A stretch of DNA of 64,000 nt from a virus (lineage: Duplodnaviria; Heunggongvirae; Uroviricota; Caudoviricetes), in IMG/VR virus record IMGVR_UViG_3300042922_000323, positions 60,977-124,976 of that record; one strand, 5' to 3'. The notes under the pieces are model-generated. The model was not told the origin of the DNA, searched no databases, and worked only from the letters and a program-made list of their open reading frames with translations. The translations under genes were made by a program, and so were the position numbers. Below are positions 4,531 to 46,670 of this stretch, one piece after another (the stretch's first letter is position 1; each line of letters opens with the position of its first letter).

Positions 4531-4534
4531 TTTA

Positions 4535-21402: not shown

Positions 21403-21626
21403 GTCTTGTCCCCCTTCTATAATGAAACGATTACTTCCATAGATTAGACCGATACAAAGAAAAAACCACACCTAAACGAGCGGGTGCGGCGGAAAATATT
21501 GTAGTTTTCTATAGAAATTAACTTCCCCTTAGAACCAAGGATATAGGGTGGATATATAAATGATAAGCGAGCATAGCGAGCTTGCATATCATTTACTTGT
21601 ATGAATATATTATTGTATATACTTCC

Positions 21627-21693
21627 GTTCTAAATTTTAGAACACGTGTGTTCTAGTTTTTAGAACATGCGTGTTCTATTTTTTAGAACACAG
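21627..21693. promoter_or_regulatory. Three tandem ~23-bp palindromic repeats of the form GTTCTAnnTTTTAGAACAnnnG.
   Basis: Read directly: gttctaaattttagaacacgtgt, gttctagtttttagaacatgcgt, gttctattttttagaacacag. They lie in the terL-phosphoesterase intergenic region. Confidence 0.6.
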
Positions 21694-21701
21694 AAATTTA
21701 A

Positions 21702-23414
21702 CTATTTTCTCCTAGCTCCTGCTATTACTGGCATAGCGAAGTGTTCAGTAGCTTCCACTTCATCATTGGAACAAATGTAAATTGCTCCCACACGAGAGTC
21801 ACTAAAGTCCTTACATTTATCAGAATCATGGTCAATCTTATTTCCATTTATTATCTTTAGTGCCTTTAATTCGGAATTTGGTGACATAACACTCTCATAG
21901 CGTGACTGGTAATCCAACAGAGAACACTGCCCAGTGTATATTAAAGCTTTTGCGTTCTGGTACAGTTGTAGCTGAAAAGGGTTAGACCAGTTCTTATCTT
22001 CGGCTTCAACTCCGTAAGACATCAATCTCTGAACAACTTCTGCGGAGTTAAACTTATCGAACAGAGCCTTTTTGACATGAACCTGCTTACATATCTGTTC
22101 TATAATATCTGCTACGTTTAAAAGGTCTACGGGAAGTCTATCCTTCTTACTAGGTCTCCATTCTAATACTAGGTCTTCAACAGGTTTGTTAAACCACTTC
22201 TGTATAGTTTCACCCTCCTCAACCACCTCAGTAATAGTTGGCTCAGCATGTACCAGTGTTAGAATGTAACTATCGGTATTAATACCTGCGTCACCTCCGA
22301 GGTAGTAAATATAGGAGGGGTCAAGTTGGAGGTTATGTAATACAAGCCCTACAAAGTGCCTTTCTTCCCCATTATTTAATGTTCTTGTTGTAATTTTCTC
22401 TTCTATTAAAAGAGCAGGGCACTGTGACGTTTTTCCTATCATAGTACATTCATCTATTCTTTCAGGGAACTGGAACAGACCATCACGGTAGGCAGGTGGA
22501 ATACACTCGTATTTCATTTTTGAACCTTCGGGGTCACGCTCATAGTCCTTGTTTAGAGACTCACGTTTAATCTTAGGGTTAACTTCCCATGACTTACCTA
22601 TCATGGCATGAACCTGCGGGTCACCGTTCTTAACAGCTTCATTGTATTTTTTCATCATATAGTCGTCCTGAGAACGAGGGAATGATATAAATAATAGAAG
22701 CATCTTATTATTATAACGAGATACAGCAGATGAACGCAGGGTAGAATAGCAACTATCAGCCTGGTCTAATTCAAAACCACCTATTTCATCAAATATAATG
22801 ATTAAAGGGTTAAATCCCTCAAATGAGTCGGCTTCTGAATGGGCACTATGGGCTGTAATATTCTTGTAAAACCTTATCTGGTTTTTGGTTAACTGAAATT
22901 CATTATACATTGTAGGGAACACACCAGTTCTCTTAAACCATTTACAGTTCATAAGACGTGCTTTGAACTTCTTAAAGAACACGTTATTAGCCTGGTAAGC
23001 ATTAATGGCTACATTAATTAAGTCTATAGGCTCGTCCTGACCAAATCCAAAGTACTGGTGGGGGTTATTCATACAGCAAAGCAAGTAACATACGTATGTA
23101 AGGATACCAGATATAAGGAAGTCCTTACCTGAACCCTTACCAAACATAACTACCATCTCAGTTACTTCTCTTAGTGCGGCTCTACATTTCTTTTCTTCCC
23201 CTGTAAATTTAAACCAAACTACCTCGTTAACTTTTTCTAGTAGCTCAGTCTGCATACCTGGGTAAGGGTTCTCACCCAAAAATTTTTTATCCTTAAAGAA
23301 GGTAACAAGGTCAACAGGTTCTTCACGCCACGTACCTTTATGTTCCTTCTTATCCTCGGCAAGGTTTACAAGGTCGTCAAGAAGTTTGCCTAATATGGCA
23401 TTGTCTTTAGCCAC
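21702..23414 (-). CDS. terL: Terminase large subunit (570 aa), with a Walker A motif MFGKGSGKD.
   Basis: P-loop, size, and position upstream of the portal. Confidence 0.85.
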   Translation of the reverse strand: MAKDNAILGKLLDDLVNLAEDKKEHKGTWREEPVDLVTFFKDKKFLGENPYPGMQTELLEKVNEVVWFKFTGEEKKCRAALREVTEMVVMFGKGSGKDFLISGILTYVCYLLCCMNNPHQYFGFGQDEPIDLINVAINAYQANNVFFKKFKARLMNCKWFKRTGVFPTMYNEFQLTKNQIRFYKNITAHSAHSEADSFEGFNPLIIIFDEIGGFELDQADSCYSTLRSSAVSRYNNKMLLLFISFPRSQDDYMMKKYNEAVKNGDPQVHAMIGKSWEVNPKIKRESLNKDYERDPEGSKMKYECIPPAYRDGLFQFPERIDECTMIGKTSQCPALLIEEKITTRTLNNGEERHFVGLVLHNLQLDPSYIYYLGGDAGINTDSYILTLVHAEPTITEVVEEGETIQKWFNKPVEDLVLEWRPSKKDRLPVDLLNVADIIEQICKQVHVKKALFDKFNSAEVVQRLMSYGVEAEDKNWSNPFQLQLYQNAKALIYTGQCSLLDYQSRYESVMSPNSELKALKIINGNKIDHDSDKCKDFSDSRVGAIYICSNDEVEATEHFAMPVIAGARRK

Positions 23415-24705: not shown

Positions 24706-24972
24706 ATGTTAAATGAAGTATGCTATAATGAAATTGGTAAAGTGAACCTTGAAAACAGAATAACTAATATTTGTGAATTGCCATTAACTCTTAGCGTAGC
24801 CGATATTTCAAAGGTTTTAGGAATTTCTAAACATAATGCCTACTGCCTATGTCATAACAAAGGATTTCCTTGTATACAGGTTGGTAAAAGGCTAGTGATT
24901 CCTAGACCTGCATTTGAAAGATGGATGGAAAACCCATTTATATTTGAAAGTGAGGAAAAACTAGATGGCTAA
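24706..24972 (+). CDS. xis: Excisionase or DNA-binding protein (HTH …LSVADISKVLGISKHNAY…).
   Basis: HTH motif. It overlaps the integrase start. An RBS (AGGGGG) lies before the ATG at 24706. Confidence 0.55.
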   Translation: MLNEVCYNEIGKVNLENRITNICELPLTLSVADISKVLGISKHNAYCLCHNKGFPCIQVGKRLVIPRPAFERWMENPFIFESEEKLDG

Positions 24973-26122
24973 GAAAAGAGAAAATGGCGAAGGAACTATT
25001 ACAAAATTAGCGAATGGAAGTTACATGGGTAGAATACTTCTAGGTTACAAAAGTGATGGCAAACAAAATAGAAAAAGTGTTTATGGTAAAACCAAAAGTG
25101 ATGTAATTCAGAAACTTCAGGAACTGTCCCTATCTAAAGTTCATGGTCTAAAAGAACCAAGTAACATGCCATTAGGAACGTGGCTTTTATATTGGTTGGA
25201 GAATTTCAAAAAACTAAGGTTAAAACCAAAGACCTATGAAGTTTACGAAACGCAAGTGGTATATAACATTATACCCTTACTTGGAGATATACCATTAAAA
25301 GACTTAAATACCCTACAAATACAGAAATATGTTAATGATAAGTCTCAAACACTAGCTCCCGCTACTGTCCGAAAGCAGTTTAGTATACTAAACTCAGCAT
25401 TGGATAAAGCAGAAGCAAACGAATTGATAACTAAAAACCCATGTAACCACGTAGAATTACCTGTTTTGGAGCAAAAAGAGATTAGAGCCTTAACACTTGA
25501 TGAAGAGAGTAAGTTCATTGAAGTTTCTAAGAATGATAAACTCTATTCACTATTTGTCGTGGCTCTTGATAGCGGTTTAAGACTTGGTGAAATACTTGCC
25601 CTAACCTGGAATGATATTGATGTAGATAAAGCTGAAATAAACGTCAATAAAAATGTTATATATGTCAAGGATTATGAAAATAAGTCCAAGACCAATAACA
25701 TTATTGCAGTTCAGGATAATCCTAAAACAAAGTCCTCTATAAGAAAAGTACCGCTCACTCAAAGGTCTCTGAATTTGTTAAAGGAACTTAAATCAAAAAC
25801 AAATTCCATTATAGTATTTGCTACAAAAACAGGGAACTATTTAAACCCTAGAAACGTGGAACGGTCATTTGTAAGAAATGCTACCAAAGCAGGAATTGAA
25901 GGTTGTAACTTTCATACTTTAAGACATACATTTGCTACAAGACTTTTTGAACGAGGTATATTTGTAAATGTTGTGTCAAAATTATTAGGTCATGCTAAAA
26001 CTTCAATAACAACCGACATTTACATTAGTGTAATACCATCACTAAAAAGTAATGCAATAAAAGCATTGGATTTACTGCACTCTGAGCAAATGCAAAGTAA
26101 ACCACTCGCAAACCAATTATAA
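24965..26122 (+). CDS. int: Tyrosine recombinase (phage integrase, 385 aa).
   Basis: C-terminal catalytic motifs HTLRHTFATRL and …TDIY are conserved in phage integrases. Confidence 0.9.
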   Translation: MAKKRENGEGTITKLANGSYMGRILLGYKSDGKQNRKSVYGKTKSDVIQKLQELSLSKVHGLKEPSNMPLGTWLLYWLENFKKLRLKPKTYEVYETQVVYNIIPLLGDIPLKDLNTLQIQKYVNDKSQTLAPATVRKQFSILNSALDKAEANELITKNPCNHVELPVLEQKEIRALTLDEESKFIEVSKNDKLYSLFVVALDSGLRLGEILALTWNDIDVDKAEINVNKNVIYVKDYENKSKTNNIIAVQDNPKTKSSIRKVPLTQRSLNLLKELKSKTNSIIVFATKTGNYLNPRNVERSFVRNATKAGIEGCNFHTLRHTFATRLFERGIFVNVVSKLLGHAKTSITTDIYISVIPSLKSNAIKALDLLHSEQMQSKPLANQL

Positions 26123-28744: not shown

Positions 28745-29902
28745 TTAAATCTCGGCAAATACCTTACTCGCTTCACTTCGCACGTCCTCTGGTAGAACGA
28801 TAATGCCAACCAGTGGGTTACCTTTACACTTATCAATGAACTGTAATAATCCGTTATTACTGACGTACTTCGCTTCTGCTTGCTTGTAATCCCCTGTGAA
28901 TACAACGCAAGAGTTCTTTCCAAGTCTTGAACCCACAAGCTTAAATATCTTCAACGTCAAGTCCTCTGCTTCATCCACAAGCATGTATGTATTGTCATAG
29001 GTCTTGCCCTTCATATGGAACGGAATCGCTTTGTCCAGTATACCTTGGTTCATCATTCTCTCAGCGTCCTGCTCGCCACCGTCCAAGCAGTCAATTATAG
29101 GTTCAAAAAACGCCCCTGTCTTTTCCTCCAAGCCGCCAGGTAGGAAGCCTATATCCTCGCCAGAGCCGATTGGGTTTCTTACCATTAAAAGTTTACCATA
29201 ACCATCCTTGCACCAGGTTAGATAAACGCCCATAGTCGCCGCCAACTTCGTTTTACCACTACCGAAGTTACCTGCTATAACTTTAATCGGAATGTCTTTA
29301 TTCATGAGCATATCTAAAGCACATCTCTGCTCAAAGTTCCATCCTTCAATAACGCTCTCAGGAGGAAGTTCTAAATCCACGAGCTTGCCGCCGCTCATTC
29401 TACATTCCAACTCGTCCCCTGTCTCAGTGTTCTTAAACAGGAAGTACTTATTTTCAAAGGACTCAATTTGCCCGTTCTCTAACATCTCGAACTCACTTTT
29501 AATATCCTCTGTATTACCCTGTATTACTTCGTACCCTGTGTAAGCAGGTATGTAATACTCTTTCCAACTTACTCCGACAGAATCCGCCTTTATCTGCATG
29601 TTTATGTCATTTGTCAATAATACGGCTTTGTTATCCTTGGCACACATTATAATCTTATTGTCACGCTTGGAAGCGTCCCAGTCCTTGGGTACTTTGTAAT
29701 TGTCCTTTGCTTCAAATGTCAAAGTTCCATTTACTTGTGCTTCCTTTATCAGCTTGTGAGCCAGTCTTGCATTGTGTCCGACTTCCCTGTCCTTCTTCAA
29801 CCCGTCAATCTCTTCCAACATAATAGAAGGAAGTATAACAGGTTTAAATTTTAACACTGCCTTTGGGTAAGAAATTAATACGTTTGTGTCAATAACGTAC
29901 AT
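28745..29902 (-). CDS. PIN-domain and PhoH-like ATPase fusion (385 aa), of the YlaK/PhoH2 type.
   Basis: N-terminal PIN signature (MYVIDTNVLIS…). A Walker A motif GNFGSGKT. PhoH-like proteins are common in phage genomes. Confidence 0.8.
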   Translation of the reverse strand: MYVIDTNVLISYPKAVLKFKPVILPSIMLEEIDGLKKDREVGHNARLAHKLIKEAQVNGTLTFEAKDNYKVPKDWDASKRDNKIIMCAKDNKAVLLTNDINMQIKADSVGVSWKEYYIPAYTGYEVIQGNTEDIKSEFEMLENGQIESFENKYFLFKNTETGDELECRMSGGKLVDLELPPESVIEGWNFEQRCALDMLMNKDIPIKVIAGNFGSGKTKLAATMGVYLTWCKDGYGKLLMVRNPIGSGEDIGFLPGGLEEKTGAFFEPIIDCLDGGEQDAERMMNQGILDKAIPFHMKGKTYDNTYMLVDEAEDLTLKIFKLVGSRLGKNSCVVFTGDYKQAEAKYVSNNGLLQFIDKCKGNPLVGIIVLPEDVRSEASKVFAEI

Positions 29903-30913: not shown

Positions 30914-31195
30914 TATACATAACAACATAACTTACCCAGTTCCGAGACCGCTCATTATGTATTATTCTATTTTCAGCACCAAAGAATATTTGAAAATTGA
31001 CAATTTAATCAAAAACTGTTGGAAGTATCTATTGATTTGAAAATTGACATTTTCAAAAAATTTTCCCAGGGGTGTTACGAAGCCACACCCCCGCCGAAGG
31101 CTGTAATCCAAAAGCCAAGGCACTGGGGGGGTCTCACGCTTACGCTTATGTCGGCTGTTAATTCTCTTCCAGTGCCCATACTTCCGAAAATAGTT

Positions 31196-31230
31196 TGTTG
31201 ACGGTTTGTGTGAACGGCGGTATGGTATCG
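31196..31230 (+). promoter_or_regulatory. Sigma-A-like promoter: TTGACG, 17 bp, TATGGT.
   Basis: Read directly: ttgacggtttgtgtgaacggcggtatggtat. It sits at the start of a ~330-nt GC-richer untranslated segment before the 31561 gene. Confidence 0.45.
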
Positions 31231-31560
31231 GTGTCAGCTTGGTCACCACGACAAGCAGACAAAGCAAGACAGCAAGACAGTACAAGTTCTTTGAAAAGTT
31301 TATATACTGTGCTTTAAGCACAGCCGTTGCGGGTTCGGTGAGTAATCCGCCACGAAGTCCCCAAGGCAAGTATCGCATTAGCGTACCTAGTACGGGACTG
31401 GGAACACTTAGCAAGCACTTAGTGCTAAGCAAGTACCGACTGGTTGAACCAGTTAGTGCAGAGCATTGTCTGACAACACACAGTCACACAGGCAAGGTAC
31501 TCAACAGGGCTACTAGACAGTATCTAGTATGCTACTTTTAAGTGTTGAGGTGTTATATTA

Positions 31561-31958
31561 TGCCAAAAGTAGAAAGAAAAATCAGTGTACAGAACGTGAC
31601 TATCGAGAACAAGAAGTATATCCAGGTGTTAATCCCTGACTATGAGCAGAACAAGGAGCTTTTGGAGCTTGAACTCTCTAACTCTGGTAATAGCTTTAAT
31701 TACGCTAATACTAGGGAACAGGCAGGTTACTTGACAGTACAGGTTAATACCTACGTCAAGAAGGACACTATGGAGTTATTAAAGGCTCACGAAGCATCAG
31801 AGGACGCTAAAAAGCGTATGCGTGAAGAGTCTGAGAAGACCGCTCAACTAGCTCAAACCGTTGAGAAGTTAAGCCCATTGCTTAATAACCCGAATCTTGA
31901 CAAGCTGTTATCCCTTGACCAGGATAAGCTTACAGCGTTACTGGCAAAAGTTAAATAA
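31561..31958 (+). CDS. Hypothetical protein (132 aa).
   Basis: ORF track. I trimmed the start to an ATG with RBS GAGGTG. Confidence 0.5.
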
Positions 31959-32063
31959 ACCCCATGTGGGACACGGCACTAGTAGCCGTGTTGAGTACCT
32001 TGATGTGTGACCGCCCATAATGTGTCTTATGGGCGGTGAATATATTACTCTAGGAGGATGACC

Positions 32064-32453
32064 ATGTATAAGCCATCAGTAGGTGCTAGACAACAGAGTA
32101 AAGGACACACAGCCCCACTTAGGGACAGTGTTAATATACTCTTTGATATAGCTATAGATTCAGTCAATAAGTCTGAGAAAGAACAAGGACGTAAACTAGC
32201 GTTCATCATGCGACAGCAGGACGCAGAACTAACGTACAAGCAACTTTGGAACAAGTATAACTCATGCCCACATTGTCGCCTAACACTCACTTCTAGTGGG
32301 TTTTGTGACGAATGTGGTTATCAAAAACCACGTGGCACATGTAAGACCTGTGCCTTTAACCAAGAAGGTAAGTGCCTTAATAGACAAGGCGTTGAAGGAC
32401 AGAAGATAGATGTTATCGAGCTTGATAGGTGCGATAACTGGGCAAGGGCTTAA
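32064..32453 (+). CDS. Zinc-ribbon protein (…CPHCRLTL…CDECGY…CKTCAF…).
   Basis: ORF track. RBS AGGAGG. Confidence 0.5.
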   Translation: MYKPSVGARQQSKGHTAPLRDSVNILFDIAIDSVNKSEKEQGRKLAFIMRQQDAELTYKQLWNKYNSCPHCRLTLTSSGFCDECGYQKPRGTCKTCAFNQEGKCLNRQGVEGQKIDVIELDRCDNWARA

Positions 32454-32831
32454 AACCCTTCCCACTTCTTCTTTTAAAGCCTTTGGACTAGAGGGGAACG
32501 TCTGCCCTTTTATCTAAAAGGTGTAGTATGTACTTGTCCTAGCGGCTTTGATTTAAACTGGGACTATCCTAGTGGATTTGGTTCAAACATGGAAACTTTT
32601 AGCAATATTTCACTGCTCATAGGCATACGTTGAGAGAGCGAAGCCTAGTAGTTTTGGTCTACGGTGGTGTAGTTATGAGATACACTACCATAGGTCAGGA
32701 CTACGTAAAACGATATAGCTGTGACACTCTAGGAGACATTCTGACACTAGTAATGGTGTGGGTGTACTCCAGTTGTGTTGCACAATATGACGTGTTGTAA
32801 TGACAATGTAGGTGTTTAAGGAGTGATACAA

Positions 32832-33080
32832 ATGAGTGTTGAGCTTAAAAAGATAGTGGACAGTATAGAGTACTATCATATTAACAAGGATGAAACTCTT
32901 ATAGGGGAGTATAGTATATACAAAGACAAAGTGTGTATAGAGTTCTTCTCTGATACTGTTGATGTAGATACTCTATGTTATATAGTTAACCATGTAAAGC
33001 AAGTTGCCCCGCCCGCCATTCAAACAAAGATAATATGCAGGAAACCGAGAGGTGTTGGTAAGGTAGGCATACGTGTATAG
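32832..33080 (+). CDS. Hypothetical protein (82 aa).
   Basis: RBS AAGGAG. It is preceded by a repeated inverted motif. Confidence 0.45.
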   Translation: MSVELKKIVDSIEYYHINKDETLIGEYSIYKDKVCIEFFSDTVDVDTLCYIVNHVKQVAPPAIQTKIICRKPRGVGKVGIRV

Positions 33081-33099
33081 AGTTTAAGGAGGGCTATAT

Positions 33100-33366
33100 A
33101 TGTTTCATACTGAACAAACAGATGTAAGTGAAGTTCTTATATACAGAGAACCAAGAGACATGACTGATGAAAAGAGTGATTGTCTTATAGGCAGTCTTAT
33201 AGATAATGGTTATGTAGTTGGAGTTAGAGCTTCATACACAATTAAGTTAAAGAAAGTAATACATCTACAAGATATGTCTCTACTCTTAGTATATCTCTTA
33301 TCTTATATAGGTGGTGGATTACATATAGAGTGTGATGACTGTTACATTAAAGTAGAGTATGAATAA
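33100..33366 (+). CDS. Hypothetical protein (88 aa).
   Basis: ORF track. RBS AAGGAGGG. Confidence 0.45.
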   Translation: MFHTEQTDVSEVLIYREPRDMTDEKSDCLIGSLIDNGYVVGVRASYTIKLKKVIHLQDMSLLLVYLLSYIGGGLHIECDDCYIKVEYE

Positions 33367-33402
33367 GCCGCCCGCCAACATTAAAAATGGAGGTGATATA
33401 CA

Positions 33403-33636
33403 ATGAGCAAAGGCGACAAAAAGTTAGTCGAAGTTCAAGTGCCAACCAAACGCATATTTGATGAAGTATTTGACTGGATTACAAGTGCTCTTGAAGAAAA
33501 ATTAAGGAAAGATGGTGTTCCCGAAGAGCAAATAGAACAAATATTTGAGGAACAAGTAGAGCCAAAGATACTGAAAGAGTTAACTTTCACACGAAAAGAA
33601 GGTTTTAAAGCAGTTTTTCAGATAAAGGAAGTATAG
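33403..33636 (+). CDS. Hypothetical acidic protein (77 aa).
   Basis: ORF track. RBS GGAGGTG. Confidence 0.45.
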   Translation: MSKGDKKLVEVQVPTKRIFDEVFDWITSALEEKLRKDGVPEEQIEQIFEEQVEPKILKELTFTRKEGFKAVFQIKEV

Positions 33637-33775
33637 TAAAATACTTACCACCAAGTAATAAAAACCCCCAAAACAATAGATATAACCTACATTGTGATTA
33701 CAGCACGTCATGTTGTAAAGGCTAAAGTAATGGCGTGTTGTAATGACTATCTAGGACTCTACAGGAGGTCACAGT

Positions 33776-34111
33776 ATGTTTATAAGTGTTAAGAGGTTAG
33801 TCACAGTTAAGGTGACAAAGTGTGTAGTAATGGTTGGTGGAATGATAGTTGATGTTGTTCCTATGATTGAACTTACTGCCGAGATAGATGAAGTGACTAT
33901 AATATGTGAAGTAGAGAAGAGAGTTAGTAATCCTATTAGAAGTATTAATGATATGTTAGCTAGTATGTCTACTAGTGATATGTCTCCTACTCCTCTATAT
34001 AGTTCTGCTAATAGTAGATGTGATTTATGTGGTAGAGAGATAGAAGATTATATGGATGGAGAGATGTTCACGCCCGCCATGTTCAAAAATAGGATGGGGG
34101 CACTGATATAA
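33776..34111 (+). CDS. Hypothetical protein (111 aa).
   Basis: ORF track. RBS AGGAGG. Preceded by the inverted motif pair. Confidence 0.45.
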   Translation: MFISVKRLVTVKVTKCVVMVGGMIVDVVPMIELTAEIDEVTIICEVEKRVSNPIRSINDMLASMSTSDMSPTPLYSSANSRCDLCGREIEDYMDGEMFTPAMFKNRMGALI

Positions 34112-34295
34112 GTTAGGAGTTGATACAAAGGTGGAATACATTATAAAAAAGCTTGCGGAGGTTCTTCTTCGCCCCTTGAACCCCAAAAAGAAAAAGTAAA
34201 TCCAAATAAACCGAGCCTAGATAGCGATTACAGCACGCCATGATAATGATTGGTGGGTGTGTTGTGATGACAGTGTAGGACTAAGGAGGAACTGT

Positions 34296-34463
34296 ATGGA
34301 TGATAAGAAATTCAAAGCATTACTAAGAATAATTTCATGCCTGTTCTCAGCAATGTTAGCTCATATGTTAGATTGTGATGCACAGGCTAGAACATATATA
34401 GAGCACGGTCAAAATGAGCTAGAATCTCTGATAAATGATGTTAGCCCTAATAAGGGCAATTGA
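34296..34463 (+). CDS. Hypothetical small protein (55 aa; MDDKKFKALL…).
   Basis: An internal Met with a strong RBS (AAGGAGGAA). Preceded by the inverted motif pair. Confidence 0.4.
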   Translation: MDDKKFKALLRIISCLFSAMLAHMLDCDAQARTYIEHGQNELESLINDVSPNKGN

Positions 34464-34472
34464 GGTGACTTT

Positions 34473-34931
34473 ATGGATAAACTTAATATACAAACTAAGC
34501 AAGTAGAAGGTCAACATGGTACATATACAGAGTTCATAGTAGCTGATGAATGTGCTAAGTGTGGTGGAGGTTGTTGTAAACAAGGATATGAACCTGATAG
34601 GGTTTATCAACAGAGATACACTGAGATAGGGATAGCACCCGCCAACCCCAAGCAAGCAGAATTGAAAGATAAGATAAGGGAAGCTCACGGTATAGAATAC
34701 AGGAACTTACTTGATGAAGCACGTACACTTGGATTTAACTTACATCAGTGTAGGTTTCTAAGTGATACTGGTTGTGTAATACCAAGAGAAGAGCGTACCG
34801 AGATATGTCGTACTTATCTGTGTCATCCGTTGTGGACTAAACGAGCCGAAGAAATGAGAAGGCAGGAACGTAATGAGTATCAACGAGAGTACAGAAAGAG
34901 AAAGAAACAATTAGTAGGGGTGAGTGCATGA
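34473..34931 (+). CDS. YkgJ-family-like putative Fe/Zn-chelating Cys-cluster protein (152 aa; CAKCGGGCC).
   Basis: The CxxCGxCC motif is characteristic of the YkgJ (UPF0153) family. Confidence 0.45.
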   Translation: MDKLNIQTKQVEGQHGTYTEFIVADECAKCGGGCCKQGYEPDRVYQQRYTEIGIAPANPKQAELKDKIREAHGIEYRNLLDEARTLGFNLHQCRFLSDTGCVIPREERTEICRTYLCHPLWTKRAEEMRRQERNEYQREYRKRKKQLVGVSA

Positions 34932-34997
34932 GTGGTTGCCCTTTTGAACACGGAATACCGTGTAGTAAATGCCCTGACAAATGTATAGCTAAAGAAG

Positions 34998-35231
34998 GTG
35001 AATGACTTTATACACGTAGAGCTTAAAGAAATAGAAAGTGCAGAGCACGCCACCAAATATTCAATATTAGTTGGTGGTTGTCCTATAGGTGAGTGCTTAC
35101 ATACTAGAGAGATTTATTTGTGTATTACATTGTATAACTCTCATATTGGTATAAGTATACTCACTGCTGTATTGCAAGAAGTAAAAGAGAAAATCCCCGC
35201 CGCCAAGAGCGTAAAATTTGAACACGATTAA
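34998..35231 (+). CDS. Hypothetical protein (77 aa).
   Basis: ORF track. Confidence 0.35.
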   Translation: MNDFIHVELKEIESAEHATKYSILVGGCPIGECLHTREIYLCITLYNSHIGISILTAVLQEVKEKIPAAKSVKFEHD

Positions 35232-35307
35232 TATGTTTAGTCCTACACTGTGATTACAGCACACCCATTATCAGGTGTTCTATAATGCTTGTTGAGGAGG
35301 GTTTGTT

Positions 35308-35469
35308 ATGATAAAGATATTTAATATAGTCGCCATATTACTTGTGGCGGCTTTGTTTTTAGCTATCTTTAAACTTACGGGAGCAGTGTGCATATTTGTA
35401 AGTTTGATTATAGTAATTGGTATATGTGTGGTTCTGTTCTATGAAGCAGAGTCCAATACTACAGAATAA
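35308..35469 (+). CDS. Small membrane protein (53 aa, two predicted TM helices). It is not in the ORF track because it is under 60 aa.
   Basis: Translated by hand: MIKIFNIVAILLVAALFLAIFKLTGAVCIFVSLIIVIGICVVLFYEAESNTTE. RBS GAGGAGGG. Confidence 0.4.
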   Translation: MIKIFNIVAILLVAALFLAIFKLTGAVCIFVSLIIVIGICVVLFYEAESNTTE

Positions 35470-35484
35470 GTGAGGTGATTGGGT

Positions 35485-35889
35485 ATGGAAGACAGGTTTT
35501 TAATAGATAATCAAGTGGTGTTACGTTTGGTTAAAGAGTGGTCTGAATATGGCAGGCTTATTATAGCGTTTGACGTTGATAGTACTGTTAAAGACTATCA
35601 TAACCTTGGTGATACATACCCAAGAGTAATACAGTTGCTAAGGGATTGCAAAGAGTTTGGTGCTCACTTAGTAGCATTTACTGCCTGTGAGGAATCTCAG
35701 TTCCCTGATATAGAGAAGTATTTACACGACAATAACATACCTTATGATGGTATCAACAAGTCCCCCGACTTTGTACCATTCAAGGGTAGGAAAATATATT
35801 ACAACATACTGTTAGATGATAGAGCGGGACTACGTTCTGCGTATCTATGCCTTAAAGAAGCACTACGAGTAATGAAGGATGGTGATTAG
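35485..35889 (+). CDS. HAD-superfamily phosphatase (5'(3')-nucleotidase or PNK-phosphatase-like), with motif I FDVDST and a DD motif (NILLDD).
   Basis: The DxDxT nucleophile motif read in the translation. Confidence 0.55.
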   Translation: MEDRFLIDNQVVLRLVKEWSEYGRLIIAFDVDSTVKDYHNLGDTYPRVIQLLRDCKEFGAHLVAFTACEESQFPDIEKYLHDNNIPYDGINKSPDFVPFKGRKIYYNILLDDRAGLRSAYLCLKEALRVMKDGD

Positions 35890-36118
35890 GTTGGGTAAGG
35901 TTTTAAGTCAGCTACAAATAGATAGGCTTGTAACAACAATGACTAATGGTAAGTGTAGGTATTGTCAGTATAAACACTTTTGTATACCTGATGAATGTTT
36001 AACACGTAGCCAAGATGATGGCGTATGAAAGCCCCTTAATGGGCATTATAGAATACCTGATGAATCGTAGGCACAGTACAATGCTCACTACAAAGAAATA
36101 ATGTGTTGAGGTGATTAT

Positions 36119-36457
36119 ATGTATAACTTGGGTCAAATTGTTTATCACGTTCCTACAGAGCGTGTTATTTTATATGCAGGTACAAATATTCAAGATGGTA
36201 TAGCCGCCACCGTTTGCTATGATGAAATACTACAGCCGTTGGTAGGCATTGATTTAAAAGATGCGGTAGCTCTTAGAAATGGTAGAACAGGTAATGTAGC
36301 ACTAGGAGCACTGCACATGGCTGAGCATCTAGGTGTTATGCAAATCAAAGAAGATGCTAAAGCATTTGCAATTCAGAAGCTAAGAGAGTCCGCCCTTAAA
36401 GTTAAGGTCGGTTTATTAATTCCACAGATAGAGAAGGTTGAAGAAGCCGCAGTTTAA
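36119..36457 (+). CDS. Hypothetical protein (112 aa).
   Basis: ORF track. RBS GAGGTG. Confidence 0.45.
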   Translation: MYNLGQIVYHVPTERVILYAGTNIQDGIAATVCYDEILQPLVGIDLKDAVALRNGRTGNVALGALHMAEHLGVMQIKEDAKAFAIQKLRESALKVKVGLLIPQIEKVEEAAV

Positions 36458-36525
36458 TACCTTTGTAGTGAGTGTTGTGATGTGCCTAATTAGACGCACT
36501 ATAATACCTATTAGGAGGTACACAA

Positions 36526-36672
36526 ATGAAAACTGCCGAAGAAATCAAGTTTGACCTGTTTTGTGACAGGTTGTTTAAATATGGTACATACGCTATGACA
36601 AGCCTTATATGGTTAGGCATAGCAAGTTTAGTAATTCATAATACGATGATTGGTTTGGGGGTGATTCGATGA
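36526..36672 (+). CDS. Small membrane protein (48 aa).
   Basis: Hand-translated MKTAEEIKFDLFCDRLFKYGTYAMTSLIWLGIASLVIHNTMIGLGVIR. RBS AGGAGG. Not in the track because it is short. Confidence 0.35.
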   Translation: MKTAEEIKFDLFCDRLFKYGTYAMTSLIWLGIASLVIHNTMIGLGVIR

Positions 36673-36926
36673 ATCCTGGTCAGTACATAACATTACAAAT
36701 AGCTAATGTTATATGGTTCTTGATTATGTTGATTACTATGCCACTATGGATAATACCAGTGATATTGATAGCCGCCGCCGTTGGTGGTTTCAAGTACTTC
36801 TGGTGGTTCTTCAAGATATGTTATGTATCATTCAGAAGTGTATTTAAGTTACCACAATGTGTTGAACAAACAACACTTTGCATATCCGCTATTAAGAAGA
36901 GTGAGAGGTGGTCAAATATGAGATAA
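36669..36926 (+). CDS. Membrane protein (85 aa).
   Basis: ORF track. Hydrophobic helices. Confidence 0.45.
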   Translation: MNPGQYITLQIANVIWFLIMLITMPLWIIPVILIAAAVGGFKYFWWFFKICYVSFRSVFKLPQCVEQTTLCISAIKKSERWSNMR

Positions 36927-37160
36927 CACCGGCAATACAATCTTTGACCTTAAAAACTGAATATTAAATTTAGAAGAAAGGGTAAACAAGATAGTTTATC
37001 TATTTCCTGAGAATTATTTGTGTAAAATGACTATTTCAAACATCAAGCCCTGTGAGTGCGGGGCTTGATATACCCCTTTAATAAGTACTATAGTGTGCCT
37101 AATAACTATATCGTGTAGGCTTTTGTATAATGTCTTCAATAATTACAGGAGGAATCCCAA

Positions 37161-37382
37161 ATGACCAAGGATACAAGGAAATCACACGTTGAGAATGTAA
37201 TGGAAGCACTTTCATTAGTAGGTGATTATGTTACAGCTAACCACATTAAGACATGTAATTGTAATGTGTGCAAAGCTTTAAAGAAAGGCACTGTATCAGC
37301 ACGTGCCTTATATAAAGAAGTATCCCCCGAAGGTGGCAAGATAGATGACGTAAAGCCACCGAGGGTTCACATATCTCACTAA
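37161..37382 (+). CDS. Hypothetical protein (73 aa).
   Basis: ORF track. RBS AGGAGG. Confidence 0.45.
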   Translation: MTKDTRKSHVENVMEALSLVGDYVTANHIKTCNCNVCKALKKGTVSARALYKEVSPEGGKIDDVKPPRVHISH

Positions 37383-37394
37383 GGAGGAATAGTA

Positions 37395-37586
37395 ATGCCA
37401 ATTCAGTACTACGTATTAAAAATCAAAGGTTACCACGAAGTGACCACAAATCTACCAGGTAGCTTCATGCATGGAAGAGATGAAGTGATAACATCTAAGC
37501 CAGTAGATTCACAGACTGCATATGCTATGTGCAGACGATTAAATAATCCAACACAGACAGTAAGAAGGCAGTTACAAACTGCTTAA
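37395..37586 (+). CDS. Hypothetical protein (63 aa).
   Basis: ORF track. RBS AAGGAGG. Confidence 0.45.
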   Translation: MPIQYYVLKIKGYHEVTTNLPGSFMHGRDEVITSKPVDSQTAYAMCRRLNNPTQTVRRQLQTA

Positions 37587-37695
37587 TTAACCATATATTG
37601 AAGACATTATAGAAAACCCTACGGCTTCGCAATCTCAGTCATATTCTGCATAATGCCCTCATACGGGGGTAACTTTTGAAAATGAGGTGATAGTC

Positions 37696-37911
37696 ATGAG
37701 CTACGATGTAAGAGTGGCAAAAGGGACAAAGATAACTCCAACCAGAAGTGGTATGAGAGTTACCAGTGAAAAGGATGGGGTGCGTACAAGCGTTAGCCCT
37801 AATGGAGTCGGTATGAGTATCGACGTAGGCAATGGTATGAGAGTTACCAAGCCGATTAAAGGAAAATCCCGAGTGACGATGCGGGTTGGAAACATGAAGA
37901 TTTCCATGTAA
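37696..37911 (+). CDS. Small protein with internal GMRVT or GMSI repeats (71 aa).
   Basis: ORF track, trimmed to an ATG with RBS GAGGTG. Confidence 0.4.
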   Translation: MSYDVRVAKGTKITPTRSGMRVTSEKDGVRTSVSPNGVGMSIDVGNGMRVTKPIKGKSRVTMRVGNMKISM

Positions 37912-38040
37912 AGTCAACAGGTTGTAGGTAAGCCGTGTGTAAAACCTACCCCCGAAAGGGTGAGTAACACCAGATGTTATGGGTACTATGAGAACCCTTA
38001 AAATAAAATAAATTGGCTATGAGCCAGGAGGATATGAATT

Positions 38041-38802
38041 ATGAATACTAAAAAATTGTTTGGCATTGACACCATCGGAGCTATCGGAGGAGATAGATTC
38101 AAAGCAAGCTTTAATGGCTTGGCTATCAAGAACGATAGGGGCGAGTATGTTACATACGACGCTAAGACAAACACTATCACCAATGTTGGTGACCTTGTGT
38201 TTGATGGCTTCGATACCGTGTTTGCCATCCCAACCCCAGTAGTTACTGTTGGTGACCTCATTCTCAGAGGTGACGAGCCAATGTATGTCAAAGCTAAAAA
38301 CGATGACGGTTCATTGGTTATAGTTAATCCTATCAATGACAGGGAAGAGACTTACTTGCCACAGAAGATGCTGTTCGGTTTCAGAATCTATGTGAAAGTG
38401 TTCTCACTGTTCAGTTCATTCGTTCCAAAGGACGGAGATGTTAAGGATGGTAATCAGTTACAGAACCTTATGTTACCGCTTGCAATGATGGGTGGTTTCA
38501 GTAAGGACGGCAAGGCTGATGGTGGACTGGCTGACATTATCCCATTCATGATGATGTCAAATATGGCAGGTGGAAATGCTGATGCTAACCCACTCGCTTC
38601 ACTGTTTGGTGGTGCTGATGCTTCCAATCCTATGACTGCAATGCTCCCACTGATGTTACTTGGCGGCAAAGGTGACAAAGGCGGACTTGGTGACATGTTA
38701 CCACTTATGTTATTAGGTGGTGGCAATCTGTTCGGAGGAGCTGCTCCTGCCGCTTCCGCAGGAAAGAAGAAATCAGCGAAGGATAAGGTTGATGGGGATT
38801 AA
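38041..38802 (+). CDS. Paralog A of a two-gene family (253 aa). It has a conserved N-terminal domain and a Met/Leu/Gly-rich repetitive C-terminus (MLPLMLLGG repeats).
   Basis: About 60 percent identity by eye with the next gene across the first ~150 aa. The tail is low-complexity. Confidence 0.55.
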   Translation: MNTKKLFGIDTIGAIGGDRFKASFNGLAIKNDRGEYVTYDAKTNTITNVGDLVFDGFDTVFAIPTPVVTVGDLILRGDEPMYVKAKNDDGSLVIVNPINDREETYLPQKMLFGFRIYVKVFSLFSSFVPKDGDVKDGNQLQNLMLPLAMMGGFSKDGKADGGLADIIPFMMMSNMAGGNADANPLASLFGGADASNPMTAMLPLMLLGGKGDKGGLGDMLPLMLLGGGNLFGGAAPAASAGKKKSAKDKVDGD

Positions 38803-38973
38803 TGCTAATCCTTAATAAGTTACCATAATATTTTTGATCGACGCATAAAGCCTTGCGACTGTGAGGCTTTATGCAATTAATAATGTTTATAAAGGACTAA
38901 TTTATTGGGGATTAGTCCTTTTTTCCTGATACCCAAGACAAATACATGTATTTATTCGGAAGGAGAATGTTCC

Positions 38974-39825
38974 ATGAACGTAAGAAATTTATTCGGAGTT
39001 GACACTATTGGTGCAATCAAAGGCAATCAGTTCAAGCCATCCATGATGGGTTTGGCAATCAAAAACGATGCAGGTGATTACGTAGTATTCGACCCTAAAA
39101 CCAACACAATAACCAATGTTGCTGACATGGTGTTTGATGGTTTTGATACCGTTTTTGCAATCCCAACACCTGTTGTTGCTGTAGGAGATTTGATTCTCCG
39201 TGGTAGCGAACCACTGTACATCAAGGCGATTAATGATGATGAATCAATCACCGTTATTAATCCTGTGAATGACAGACAGGAGAACTACTTACCACAGAAA
39301 ACCTTATTTGGTTTCCGTGTGTATGTAAAAGTGTTCTCATTGTTCGGTAGCATTATACCTACTGCTAACGGTGATGGAAACGTCAACGGTCTCAGTGGTA
39401 TGTTACCATTCCTGCTCATGAGCGGTGGACTTGGTGAAGGTGGAGATATGAAGGATATACTTCCACTGATGCTGTTCGGTAACCTTGGTGGTGGAAACAT
39501 ATTCGGTGGCACAACTGGGGATGAAAACAAAGACCAGGCAAACCTGATGAACACTCTGATGTTCATGACTCTCTTCAGTGAGAAGAAAGATAAGGGGGCT
39601 AAGTCTTTCACTAAGGCTGTTGATGTTAAAGCGGCTTCTGCCACTACTAAATCGGTAGTTGACAGAGAAACTTACGTGTCCAAGGTGAAGGCAAGGCTAC
39701 ACAGTCTTCCATCATCCAAGGAAGCCATTGTAAGAAAGGAAATTGATCGCAGAAAGAAAGCCAAAGGTCTTTCCGTTCTGAAATGGGAAGAAGTTGAAGA
39801 TGTAATGAATCTGCTCGGGGTCTAA
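38974..39825 (+). CDS. Paralog B (284 aa from MNVRNLFG…) of the same family, with a Lys-rich C-terminal extension.
   Basis: Alignment by eye with 38041-38802. I trimmed the start to an ATG with RBS AAGGAG. Confidence 0.55.
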   Translation: MNVRNLFGVDTIGAIKGNQFKPSMMGLAIKNDAGDYVVFDPKTNTITNVADMVFDGFDTVFAIPTPVVAVGDLILRGSEPLYIKAINDDESITVINPVNDRQENYLPQKTLFGFRVYVKVFSLFGSIIPTANGDGNVNGLSGMLPFLLMSGGLGEGGDMKDILPLMLFGNLGGGNIFGGTTGDENKDQANLMNTLMFMTLFSEKKDKGAKSFTKAVDVKAASATTKSVVDRETYVSKVKARLHSLPSSKEAIVRKEIDRRKKAKGLSVLKWEEVEDVMNLLGV

Positions 39826-39991
39826 TAAACCCTGGGCTATTCGCCCTTACCCAAATGAGGGTATTATGAAGAATATGGCTGTGATTGTGAATCTCTCAAC
39901 TGTTAGACGTTGTATAATCTCCATCGAGAGAGGAGGGTGTATATGAGAGTGACACCTGTAATAAGTGTTAATAGTGGGAGGTTGACTAATT

Positions 39992-40507
39992 ATGACCAGA
40001 AAAGGAAAGATACCACGGGCAGTCAAAAGGATTCAAAGAAGAAGGGTAAAGATAAAACAATCAATCCAAGCTTCCGAGCCTGTACCGATTCAACCCGTAA
40101 TGAAGGGTACAGAGTTTGAGTGGTTCAAACGTGATTCCTACGCCATTCGTGGTGAAGAAAAACTACTGAAATTCTTGAATCCATCAAAGAATGAAGAAAA
40201 TGCATGTAAGTTCATCAATTTGAAGTTTCATGATGGTGATGAATATACCATCAACCTGAGTAAAAGTAAAAAGAGCCTAGACTTCATATATTTTGAAAAT
40301 AAGCAAGATATGTCGGTTAGACTTTATTCCCCTTCAGGACACAGGATAATAGTAAATCTTGATTATGCAATAAATATAGACAGAGTATTCACTGTCTTAC
40401 AGCTTGAAGGGTTGTACGATAGAAAAGAATACGATACATTGTACGAAAAGTACATTGAACCACAAGGTAAAACAAGCGGTGTGGTTGCAAGTGCTTATAG
40501 TAGATAA
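39992..40507 (+). CDS. Hypothetical protein (171 aa) with a basic N-terminus.
   Basis: ORF track. RBS GGGAGG. Confidence 0.45.
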   Translation: MTRKGKIPRAVKRIQRRRVKIKQSIQASEPVPIQPVMKGTEFEWFKRDSYAIRGEEKLLKFLNPSKNEENACKFINLKFHDGDEYTINLSKSKKSLDFIYFENKQDMSVRLYSPSGHRIIVNLDYAINIDRVFTVLQLEGLYDRKEYDTLYEKYIEPQGKTSGVVASAYSR

Positions 40508-40598
40508 TTTAATGGAGGAACTTATATGTGTAAAGATTGTGTTGAAAGAGATAATTGTATCTCTTCCGAGTGTCCATTACATGTGATTGGAGGTGTTA

Positions 40599-41282
40599 AG
40601 AGTGTCAGAAGAGAAAAAAGAAACCACCGCCCCGTCAGGGTTTCTCGACATGAAGAAGATTCAAGAGATAGTCGAGGAAATAATAACAAAAGGGAGGTCG
40701 CTGTATAACAACGACCCAAAATGCTATACAAAAGGTCGTGGCGTTGATGATAACGCTTTTATGCATGAGCATTGCACAAGAAAAGCTATTGAGGAAATGA
40801 TAACTGAGAAGCTTGAAGGTGTGAGTGTGAATGATATTTTAGCGATACTGAGTTTCAGTATGCTCCACTACTACATCATAAAGGTTGAGCGTTGGGAACA
40901 CTTTCTGTACCCTGACAAAGACCGAGATAAAATTACCCTTCAACAAGCATTTAAGGGTAAGGTTACCGAAGAAGGTATACATGAGTTTGCTGAGCATGTA
41001 CTTTACTTCTGCTGTAGAATTTATTACTACGCTCTTGTAGAAAAGAAACGTATTGATAAAGAAAACAGGAAGAAAGAGGAGGAAAAGTTAAATAATACAG
41101 GTAGCAAATCTGCTACTACTGGTGTGCAATCAAGCACAGTGACATATACTTCTCGAAATTCAGGAAATTGGGTAAATGGAGCATGGCATCATCAAAGTTG
41201 CCAATGTGAAGCTTGTAAAGCTAAGAATAAGCCCGCCAGTGTCGGTTTCGGAAGTGGTGGACGTATGGTATACCCTCTTTAG
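40599..41282 (+). CDS. Hypothetical protein (about 228 aa).
   Basis: ORF track. I prefer a GTG start with RBS GGAGGTG. Confidence 0.4.
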   Translation, partial: RVSEEKKETTAPSGFLDMKKIQEIVEEIITKGRSLYNNDPKCYTKGRGVDDNAFMHEHCTRKAIEEMITEKLEGVSVNDILAILSFSMLHYYIIKVERWEHFLYPDKDRDKITLQQAFKGKVTEEGIHEFAEHVLYFCCRIYYYALVEKKRIDKENRKKEEEKLNNTGSKSATTGVQSSTVTYTSRNSGNWVNGAWHHQSCQCEACKAKNKPASVGFGSGGRMVYPL

Positions 41283-41348
41283 TTAATGCCCTTGATGGGC
41301 ATTATAGAACGTCTAACAGTTGATAGGGTAATGAAAGGGTGATACATA

Positions 41349-41723
41349 ATGCTGATTATCAAGTACAGTGAACGGGGAGACCCAGTACCTGACCATGAAT
41401 GTGAAGAACTTATAATGGATTCAACATTGAGTCCAATTGACTTCACTAGCCACCTCAACGTGTCTACAGAAAATGTAATTGAAGCCGCCAGAGCGTTGAT
41501 AGCGGAGGGTAAAATTACCCCAAGTAATGTAAAAATATTTATATTCGATACAGAGCTTGAAGTTAATGAGTATGGGGAAATGAAAAATCCTAAAATACTC
41601 CCTGACCATAGCCTACAGTGGATAAGACGAGTTGTTATGACAGGTATTGAGAGAAGGAAGAAACTAAGAGAGAAATCAAACGCTAGTGATAGCGATGATA
41701 ATAAAATAAGTGTTGAGGAGTGA
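41349..41723 (+). CDS. Hypothetical protein (124 aa).
   Basis: ORF track. RBS AGGGTG. Confidence 0.45.
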   Translation: MLIIKYSERGDPVPDHECEELIMDSTLSPIDFTSHLNVSTENVIEAARALIAEGKITPSNVKIFIFDTELEVNEYGEMKNPKILPDHSLQWIRRVVMTGIERRKKLREKSNASDSDDNKISVEE

Positions 41724-42352
41724 TGAACATGCCATTTACAGGTAACGTAAGACCAATAACAATTAAGAAAGGCATGACCTACATTAAGACTGCTACAAAG
41801 AGATTGGAAAGAATCATCAAGCAGTTGGAAGAGTATGGTGCGTGGGACAGTAAGAATAAGATACCATTGGTTAGTACTGACTATACTCTGGAAACAAACC
41901 ACAGTAAAGCAAAAGCAGAAGTAAAAGCTCTATTACAGAGTTTCTTCGACTTGACCGCTGAGATTGAACTTACCAGGGAAGCGATGGATAGAACAAACTT
42001 AACAGCTACAATCACTGTAGCAGGTAAGACAATGACCATCCAGAGAGCCTTAATCCTCAGAAGGATGACCGCTCCATTTTACAAATCATTAAGAACGGCT
42101 TACAACAAGACAGTTAAGGTGGCTACTTCAAAAGTAGAACAGTACAATGTTGGTGTTGTCGCCATGAATAAAGATGCAACACCCGAAGCTGTTGAAGCAC
42201 TTAAAGCACAGCTTGAAGTATTCATACCCCGTGACACTGTTGATAATGTTGAAAATTTCCTCGCAGAGTTCCTCCAAGAAGTTGATGGTGCTCTCGATGA
42301 TGTAAACGGTACACAATCACTCATTTGGGGTGATGATACCGCCATAGTATAA
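41723..42352 (+). CDS. Hypothetical protein (about 209 aa).
   Basis: ORF track. An ATG overlaps the upstream stop codon. Confidence 0.45.
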   Translation: MNMPFTGNVRPITIKKGMTYIKTATKRLERIIKQLEEYGAWDSKNKIPLVSTDYTLETNHSKAKAEVKALLQSFFDLTAEIELTREAMDRTNLTATITVAGKTMTIQRALILRRMTAPFYKSLRTAYNKTVKVATSKVEQYNVGVVAMNKDATPEAVEALKAQLEVFIPRDTVDNVENFLAEFLQEVDGALDDVNGTQSLIWGDDTAIV

Positions 42353-42488
42353 GAAATTAATCTTGCTTGCATATCGTAGTAAAGCTACGAGAAAGACCAA
42401 ACAGTGCCGTCAAAAGCACTCCAATGCTAATGGAGAAAACGAAGGCAGGTAAGCCGTACATCTGCGGGTGTATCGGGTGCTTGACGAT

Positions 42489-42569
42489 TCTGAGTGCTTA
42501 GTCCTCATGTGTTTATGTACTAGATGTGTTTAGTCCATAAGTGCTAGATGTGCTAAGTCCTCATGTGCT
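42489..42569. repeat. Three direct ~24-bp iteron-like repeats (AGATGTGYTWAGTCCWYAWGTGCT) with a 24-bp period.
   Basis: Read directly: …gagtgcttagtcctcatgtg… / agatgtgtttagtccataagtgct / agatgtgctaagtcctcatgtgct. They lie in a 350-bp intergenic region. Confidence 0.6.
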
Positions 42570-42699
42570 CCTTCAAATCCCTACTTTGACTTACTTTGTG
42601 GTTGGGTATTTACTCGCCATAATGACAGCATGGTTGCTGTGTAGTTTTGAGGGTAGGGCTGATATGCAAGCAAGTTTAATATATAACAGGAGGTTTGTT

Positions 42700-46611: not shown

Positions 46612-46670
46612 CTACTGCAGTACCCCCACGTATAAGTACTATGTAAGATTATTTATACGAGGTGTTTATA

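Follow-up and report, generated by a model that had tools for sequence, protein, structure and literature searches.

Complementary arms around successive small-gene cassettes

The window analysed here is a 64,000-nucleotide (nt) stretch of the IMG/VR virus record IMGVR_UViG_3300042922_000323 (positions 60,977 to 124,976), and all coordinates below refer to it. At least 12 inverted-repeat pairs, each specific to its cassette, are arrayed on its plus strand, with arms of 20–42 nt, loops of 112–2192 nt and duplex energies of −22 to −59 kcal/mol; the cassette bracketed by a pair consists of between one and four small genes, or else of a tRNA or a non-coding RNA. The pairs were identified with an ungapped scan of all diagonals that counted Watson–Crick matches only, at separations of 120–4000 nt. 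This returned 11 pairs scoring at least 15, where five dinucleotide shuffles returned none, and a more sensitive scan added a twelfth pair (36489–36513/37079–37103). The diagonal scan replaced an RNAduplex comparison of all intergenic gaps, which was dropped because its energies track segment length and the shuffled null was equally extreme.

Between 32782 and 41326 the tiling of cassettes is unbroken, with spacers of −7 to 13 nt from 3′ arm to next 5′ arm at eight consecutive junctions, while the pairs at 31483/31979, 42356/42661 and 49298/49446 stand outside this tract. All of the cassettes lie on the plus strand. Cassette 1 (5′ arm 31483–31516, 3′ arm 31979–32011) holds a single gene (31560–31958) and is the one in which covariation was found across eight orthologues. 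The next three are cassette 2 (32782–32813/33685–33716; genes 32832–33636), cassette 3 (33730–33755/34216–34241; gene 33776–34111) and cassette 4 (34254–34284/35237–35267; genes 34296–35231), whose inverted repeats of 32, 26 and 31 nt enclose 871, 460 and 952 nt, those of cassette 2 forming 29 Watson–Crick and two G·U pairs. They are followed by cassette 5 (35270–35297/36034–36061; genes 35308–36028), cassette 6 (36068–36095/36461–36488; gene 36119–36457), cassette 6b, which is the twelfth pair and has the weakest stem (genes 36526–36926; −22 kcal/mol), and cassette 7 (37115–37141/37596–37622; genes 37161–37586). Cassette 8 (37626–37667/39850–39891; genes 37696–39825) has 42-nt arms placed 2182 nt apart, and cassette 9 (39893–39928/41291–41326; genes 39943–41282) closes the unbroken tract.

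Cassette 10 (42356–42375/42661–42680) encloses 285 nt without an open reading frame (ORF), and cassette 11 (49298–49325/49446–49473) encloses a tRNA-Leu (49372–49440). The interior of cassette 10 has stops in all three frames, folds with a z-score of −4.19 and matches no Rfam family; this structured, putatively non-coding RNA is a candidate new phage non-coding RNA. A direct repeat, AGTGCTTAGTCCTCATGTG/TGTGCTAAGTCCTCATGTG, lies within it. No comparable ungapped bracketing stem was found around tRNA-Cys, tRNA-Trp or the transfer-messenger RNA (tmRNA).

The arms keep a regular position relative to the genes that they enclose. The 5′ arms end 10–28 nt before the first start codon, leaving the Shine–Dalgarno (SD) sequence mostly unpaired just inside the loop, and the 3′ arms begin 3–152 nt past the last stop codon. 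Arm sequences differ among cassettes in all but a short T(A/G)TAAT-like core. Each pair would form a continuous helix of at least 20 bp on one RNA strand, and the stems appear in the minimum free energy (MFE) folds both of whole cassettes and of a 4.9-kb transcript, where all seven brackets close with 22–31 bp each.

Part of this array had been noticed before. An original prediction described, at 32770–35265, a conserved motif in adjacent inverted pairs upstream of four consecutive small genes. The motif copies are indeed there, with the core GTGYTGTRATSRC occurring exactly at 32792(+), 33694(−), 33735(+), 34224(−), 34259(+) and 35250(−), and the core is over-represented: there are seven matches with at most one mismatch against a shuffle mean of 0.85, and none of 100 shuffles reached seven. 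The seventh match (one mismatch, at 24380) is probably due to chance. The four start codons (32832, 33776, 34296 and 35308) and the SD sequences that precede them are likewise as described. About ten genes, however, lie between 32832 and 35308, in blocks of about three, one and three to four, and the partner of each forward copy is not the adjacent reverse copy but the one 460–950 nt downstream. When aligned on the core and numbered from the left, the flanks of these distant partners are identical at 26/32 (F1–R1), 23/32 (F2–R2) and 28/32 (F3–R3) positions, as against 21/32 and 16/32 for the adjacent copies R1–F2 and R2–F3.

Adjacent copies could instead be supposed to form local intergenic hairpins of ~70 nt, serving as terminators or local processing sites, and at the two junctions of this arm family they can pair through a shared 13-nt core (−29.4 kcal/mol for R1–F2 and −28.2 kcal/mol for R2–F3). 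Such pairing is nevertheless weaker than that of the three brackets (−41 to −59 kcal/mol), its variable flanks mismatch (16–21/32 against 23–28/32), and MFE folds of the 2.5-kb interval and of the 4.9-kb stretch contain not a single base pair between adjacent arms. At the other junctions adjacent pairing is worth just −7 to −17 kcal/mol, and the absence of a T-run after any 3′ arm speaks against terminators. We regard local hairpins as highly improbable, close to negligible as an account of these sites.

Three neighbouring cassettes with arms of one related family account for all six motif copies, which form their 5′ and 3′ arms: the copies originally placed at 32792 and 33686 belong to cassette 2, those at 33735 and 34215 to cassette 3, and those at 34257 and 35239 to cassette 4. 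The same architecture, with unrelated arm sequences, extends well past the interval first reported, to 31483–42680 and again to 49298–49473. Among the small proteins of cassettes 2–4, g32832, g34473 and g34998 are weakly similar to one another and have in common a P-[PA]-A-x-[FIV]-K-like motif at the C-terminus, for which CCCGCC sites code; this suggests a tandemly duplicated paralogue family; such duplication would account for their one shared arm family. A scan of IMG/VR with a degenerate form of the motif gave seven single matches only, attributed to chance because they show no tblastx similarity to the window. For annotation, the lesson is that a motif found upstream of genes can be one half of a long-range structure, and that a search for its distant complement can reveal the other half.

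Covariation, strand bias and turnover of the arms

Contigs with PhoH proteins 74–80% identical to that of the window have the same bracket architecture. Using the conserved 132-amino-acid (aa) protein of cassette 1, eight distinct orthologues of this cassette were gathered, with ~70% nucleotide identity where measured. The MFE structure of the full ~520-nt RNA includes a closing stem of 29–33 bp in 8/8 orthologues. In the aligned arms 97.1% of cells are in standard pairs, a proportion that falls to 22–43% when the partner is slid by one to three columns. Compensatory double changes affect 7 of the 30 pairs (14 cells over the eight orthologues), and the observed covariation score was reached in none of 500 shuffles. 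As judged from these alignments, arm pairing is under selection in cassette 1. The paralogous cassettes 2–4 each have their own matched flanks. The earlier observation was real but wrongly assembled: the window contains an array of arms that are specific to their cassette, complementary over a long range and selected for pairing. The array is absent from the genomes of phages Jenst (126 kb) and EZ-2018a (118 kb) and from two more distant PhoH-linked contigs.

A single G·G mismatch in the cassette-1 stem is invariant in 8/8 orthologues. G·G mismatches are also seen among the arms of the motif family and, in the related contig L019, within an unrelated cassette, with no consistent position across cassettes relative to the stem ends or to the AT-rich box. 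Two further small structures accompany cassette 1. A GC-rich hairpin without a T-tract (CCGCCCATAA-tgtgtc-TTATGGGCGG, 32011–32037) directly follows the 3′ arm and is kept in every relative, in L017 through a compensatory change (CTGC/GCAG), and a smaller covarying hairpin follows the stop codon, reading CCCC-ATG-TGGG in the window and CCC-GCAA-GGG in L017.

The strand on which the stems are more stable bears on the level at which pairing acts. In 10/12 cassettes the stem is more stable as plus-strand RNA, with totals of −528.8 against −466.6 kcal/mol (one-sided Wilcoxon p = 0.017). In stems delimited by Watson–Crick pairs only, G·U outnumbers A·C mismatches by ~17:6, where base composition predicts 54% G·U. 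The bracketing of a tRNA and of an ORF-less RNA fits RNA processing better than it fits translation or promoter logic. The pairing likely acts in mRNA-sense RNA; the bias is modest, and strand-asymmetric mutation could contribute to it.

The arms have also been considered as protein-binding sites, either promoters or operators of a regulator or sigma factor, with the 5′ arm driving its cassette and the 3′ mirror acting as decoy, roadblock or antisense promoter. This would explain why a T(A/G)TAAT-like sense box stands 20–41 nt before the start codon in all 5′ arms inspected by eye except that of cassette 1, and why the arms of cassette 8 read TTCGCA-17-CATAAT, mirrored on the opposite strand; Jenst-type relatives, moreover, encode several sigma factors. 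Sigma-70-type sites are not enriched, however (48 in 29.8–43.5 kb against 42.7 expected), −35 elements and true TGn extended −10 motifs are absent, and the motif hexamer TGTAAT has a G at position 2, where an A is critical. Cassette 1 lacks the box in its arms altogether, and protein binding predicts no cassette-specific compensatory covariation outside it. The arms also lack a common recognition sequence, the motif being present in 6/24 arms and the rest being unrelated except for the short AT-rich box. Repeated operators of one regulator, as first suggested, are unlikely given that arms are cassette-specific and covary with a distant partner and that nine other brackets are without the motif. 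Taken as a whole the promoter or operator explanation appears very unlikely, although the −10-like box in most 5′ arms leaves room for a minor promoter role. A proposal that G-to-C differences between arms disarm an antisense extended −10 element was rejected, as the TG abuts the hexamer and is not in the TGn register, and the differences are inconsistent between cassettes.

Whole cassettes come and go between relatives, as is best seen at the junction after cassette 1, which has at least five states among eight phages. The junction is empty in the window, L015 and L022. In L012 it contains a newly acquired cassette that is complete, its arms matching perfectly (27/27) around a 66-aa ORF, and in L019 an unrelated ORF between arms that are homologous in their inner half and different but compensated in their outer half. 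L013 has a small non-coding (empty) bracket at this site, and L021 a short hairpin resembling the fused outer ends of the L012 cassette arms.

Such turnover raises the alternative that the arms serve chiefly as DNA elements bounding mobile or exchangeable cassettes, either terminal inverted repeats or recombination signals, with arm-to-arm gene conversion or repeated re-creation keeping them complementary and RNA pairing as a by-product. The presence or absence of whole cassettes together with their arms, the perfect arms of L012 and the homologous arms around an unrelated ORF in L019 would all be expected if this were so, and it would suit both the cargo, almost all of it ORFans, and a by-eye grouping of the arms into one loose superfamily with a TATA(G)AAT-like core. 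The machinery, however, is lacking: no transposase was found among ~60 window ORFs, a phage integrase is the sole recombinase, and Pfam and PHROG scans of the window proteins found no serine invertase. Outer ends differ between cassettes, unlike the conserved termini of transposons or miniature inverted-repeat transposable elements. The L012 insertion shows an A/T-rich, AATA-like resemblance at its target, and comparison with the empty site requires no duplication. Cassette 1 has the same orientation in 8/8 orthologues, with no inversion of the Hin/Gin type. Classical transposition and invertase models fail, then, for want of a clear target-site duplication, conserved termini, a transposase or an inverted cassette. 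Frequent conversion would also erase the G·G mismatch that is fixed in all orthologues, a DNA-only constraint would not be expected to produce the mRNA-sense stability bias, and a tRNA and a non-coding RNA are bracketed too. A mainly DNA-level function is therefore judged unlikely, yet some DNA-level process creating or exchanging bracketed units must exist. A possible route is that processing hairpins between genes take up new genes in their loops, as is suggested by the short hairpin of L021 and the empty bracket of L013 at the same site.

Candidate processing stems in a presumed read-through transcript

The transcription context of the array was examined over 29.8–43.5 kb, where no plus-strand terminator was found at the junctions. 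A candidate array promoter obtained by consensus scan (TTGACG-17-TATGGT, 31198–31226, plus strand) lies ~260 nt 5′ of the first 5′ arm and is partly conserved in the orthologues. The promoter-like site and the lack of junction terminators would fit read-through transcription across the array. The candidate promoter falls within a conserved region of ~650 nt without a called gene (30914–31559), located between a DUF6431 gene and cassette 1 and containing seemingly covarying hairpins; it may encode a leader RNA or serve in regulation. An invariant 20-mer, AGAGCATTGTCTGACAACAC, which contains the palindrome TTGTC-T-GACAA, lies at 31460–31479 on the plus strand, 3 nt 5′ of the cassette-1 arm, and is identical in 8/8 orthologues while its flanks vary. 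Searches for it in metagenome, genome and viral collections returned two loci, both of them unrelated and without brackets.

Near-perfect helices of 20–42 bp fall in the class of bacterial RNase III substrates, and processing stems are proposed on this ground together with the precedents given below. We consider it an even chance, and the likeliest of the explanations, that the brackets are RNase III-type stems which, by analogy with known substrates, would release each cassette from one long transcript. The block would first be transcribed as a long read-through RNA, starting from the candidate promoter upstream of cassette 1. Each emerging 3′ arm would then pair with its own 5′ arm, a step supported by the in silico folds and by covariation, so that the cassette is looped out by a helix of 20–42 bp. 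Finally, host RNase III would cut the helix and yield a separate cassette RNA whose ends are still paired and whose strong SD sequence lies near the new 5′ end, a combination that may provide stability and independent translation. The cassette plus its arms is also the unit gained, lost or replaced among related phages. The original suggestion of processing hairpins that punctuate an early operon came close to this explanation, but the stems are long-range and surround whole cassettes, where local palindromes of ~70 bp had been envisaged.

Several known systems resemble the array in part. In the early mRNAs of phages T7 and SP82, RNase III sites are local hairpins between cistrons, with sequences related from site to site. 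Panganiban and Whiteley reportedly described, in 1983, the Bs-RNase III sites of SP82 early mRNA, with the processed 5′ end near a strong SD sequence. There too polycistronic early transcripts are punctuated by double-stranded signals between cistrons, but in the window phage each helix is built from one strand on either side of a cassette, both specific to it. The start-associated and extended start-associated sequences (SAS/ESAS) of cluster K mycobacteriophages are a conserved motif just 5′ of the ribosome-binding sites of many genes and sometimes form imperfect inverted repeats. They resemble the motif as it was originally described and differ from the arms in being local, conserved in sequence across genes and without a partner 3′ of the gene.

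The principle of processing by flanking stems is established for rRNA operons, where RNase III releases 16S and 23S rRNA (PMC6582327). The array shares with them long-range complementary flanks that form a helix of at least 20 bp around a unit, a separate stem for each successive unit, and the possibility of a tRNA among the units. It differs in that its cargo is mostly small protein genes, in a row of at least 12 units with abutting arms, and in that cleavage would be by analogy. The RNase III of Bacillus subtilis cuts mRNA duplexes of 10–36 bp that form within one molecule between strands up to 505 nt apart (PMC11780869). The phage stems, at 20–42 bp, are of similar size and likewise span hundreds of nucleotides, but the B. 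subtilis duplexes are scattered single host sites, whereas the phage has an ordered array around blocks of cistrons with loops of up to 2.2 kb. As cited in PMC4838370, SP82 early mRNA is a known substrate of Bs-RNase III. The PeSL elements of T4-type phages also flank ORFans in plastic regions as small intergenic elements that coincide with insertions and deletions between relatives (PMC2839356, PMC4122927). These are direct repeats of a sigma-70 promoter and a local terminator hairpin and act through homologous recombination (PMC2839356, PMC4122927). The arms are inverted, cassette-specific and long-range, and had none of the three PeSL features looked for: a sigma-70-like promoter (there is a −10-like box only and no −35), a local terminator, and direct conserved repeats. 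No description of a phage array of gene-bracketing long-range stems was found in the literature, coverage of which was incomplete.

The main rival is that RNA duplexes form but are not processed, and serve instead in stabilisation or translational control: as end clamps against exonucleases, as folding insulation between neighbouring cistrons, or to tune translation of the first cistron. All of the evidence for RNA pairing applies to it equally, and there are precedents in which the 5′ leader pairs with the 3′ trailer of one message. Pairing of the 5′ and 3′ untranslated regions (UTRs) of icaR in Staphylococcus aureus creates an RNase III site and sequesters the SD sequence (PMC3868564), and UTR pairing in hbs of B. 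subtilis affects stability (PMC5737220). The arms of cassettes 4, 5, 6b and 9 touch or overlap the SD sequence, as in icaR. Both precedents, however, are single host genes with shorter interactions, whereas the phage has a genome-scale array in which most SD sequences are free, just inside the loop. In an uncut read-through RNA the arms would be internal and not at RNA ends, and helices of 20–42 bp match the lengths cleaved by RNase III (PMC11780869), so that their escape would need special protection. A non-processing role seems doubtful.

A number of points weigh against the processing of the stems by RNase III. We infer all three of its steps, namely read-through of the junctions, stem formation in vivo and cleavage. 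Those loops that measure 736–2192 nt are longer than any documented for B. subtilis mRNAs (505 nt), and ribosomes engaged in translation could slow the closing of the stem. Most 5′ arms have a TAtAAT-like box 20–41 nt before the start codon, and if these boxes were real promoters, transcripts starting there would carry little of that arm. The strand asymmetry is modest (p ~0.02–0.03), the stems of cassettes 1 and 6b are slightly better on the minus strand, and strand-biased mutation could add to the asymmetry. Nor does the proposal account for the conserved single G·G mismatch. The perfect 27/27 arms of L012 would not be made by RNA selection alone and so imply some DNA-level process. Lastly, no phage RNase III was found among ~60 ORFs of the window.

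An extension of the processing reading, offered tentatively and with rather low confidence, is that the brackets are portable expression modules, in which the same arms excise the unit from the transcript and mark the DNA boundaries at which it is gained, lost or swapped. If so, a captured ORF, tRNA or non-coding RNA would arrive ready for release from a read-through transcript. In archaeal rRNA processing the excised units are ligated into circles. By analogy, and more radically, units excised here with paired ends may be ligated into circular RNAs; genes for RtcB and an RNA ligase are present in related phages of the Jenst type.

If the stems are cut, this phage lineage would organise a long early transcript by stem punctuation, with an address-specific pair of arms for each unit, and messages, a tRNA and a small RNA would be released and stabilised independently without separate promoters and terminators. 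This would extend the principle of rRNA-operon processing to protein-coding genes at genome scale and would constitute a natural counterpart of the RNA-cleavage insulators used in synthetic operons. It would also tie RNA processing signals to the modular turnover of ORFans, giving a testable handle on how phages acquire genes and express them immediately.

Setting of the array in the phage genome

The phage is siphovirus-like, with a genome of ~125 kb, and its host is probably Gram-positive, as indicated by strong AGGAGG ribosome-binding sites and by an NlpC/P60 protein bearing an S-layer-homology domain. A leftward block at 3–24 kb contains the terminase, portal, major head and tape-measure genes, followed by the integrase gene (24965–26122) and, on the minus strand, a gene for a PIN-PhoH protein (28745–29902). 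The rightward block, on the plus strand, runs from ~30 kb to the end of the window and contains three tRNAs and the tmRNA. Neither an RNA ligase nor a sigma factor was found among ~60 window ORFs. Among deposited phages, Brevibacillus phage Jenst and Bacillus phage EZ-2018a are closest, with a portal identity of ~48%. No relative was found among the isolate genomes searched, megablast of 31–37 kb against deposited phages gave no match, and searches of viral, metagenome and genome collections with a 306-aa cassette protein and a cassette-1 profile found no relatives.

The PIN-PhoH protein resembles the NCBIfam entry 'RNA 5′-3′ helicase PhoH2' at 143 bits, against a cutoff of 680. An RNA helicase/RNase-type gene thus neighbours an array of RNA duplexes, but the link between the two is weak since this gene also occurs in the bracket-less relatives L023 and L024. 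The tmRNA (47074–47477, plus strand; Rfam, 108 bits) has the tag peptide AKNVLNAVKGFFASLVPTPAFAGACA, with an HNH endonuclease gene (ORF 46662–47054) directly 5′ of it and an ordinary terminator hairpin 3′ of it. At 54893–57918 on the plus strand, adjoining genes have PHROG matches to an amidoligase and a glutamine amidotransferase; such pairs occur in phage DNA hypermodification clusters.

The hexamer CCCGCC occurs 30 times in the whole window against 5.6 expected, a number equalled in none of 100 shuffles, with 25 copies on the plus strand and 5 on the minus strand (for example at 563, 6913, 33012, 34073, 35196 and 61714). The plus-strand bias persists where the genes are on the minus strand. 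It is a strand-polar motif, possibly Chi-like or tied to the direction of replication or packaging. Many of the copies among the cassettes have the extended form CCCGCCA and lie close to the 3′ end of a small ORF, as is also the case in L012.

Two observations concern relatives only. In the distant PhoH-linked contig L024 (JGI 3300042959), an 853-aa protein encoded at 2153–4714 has a Pfam match to RNA-dependent RNA polymerase (RdRP, PF05183) and lies beside SPbeta-like Yon genes, unrelated to the array. Phage Jenst (L003) carries multiple copies of a palindromic motif, TTAGGGGTATTGTCAATACCCCTAA, over ~7 kb near its right end (~15615–22760), and these look like a repeated operator or promoter, unlike the cassette-specific arms of the window phage.

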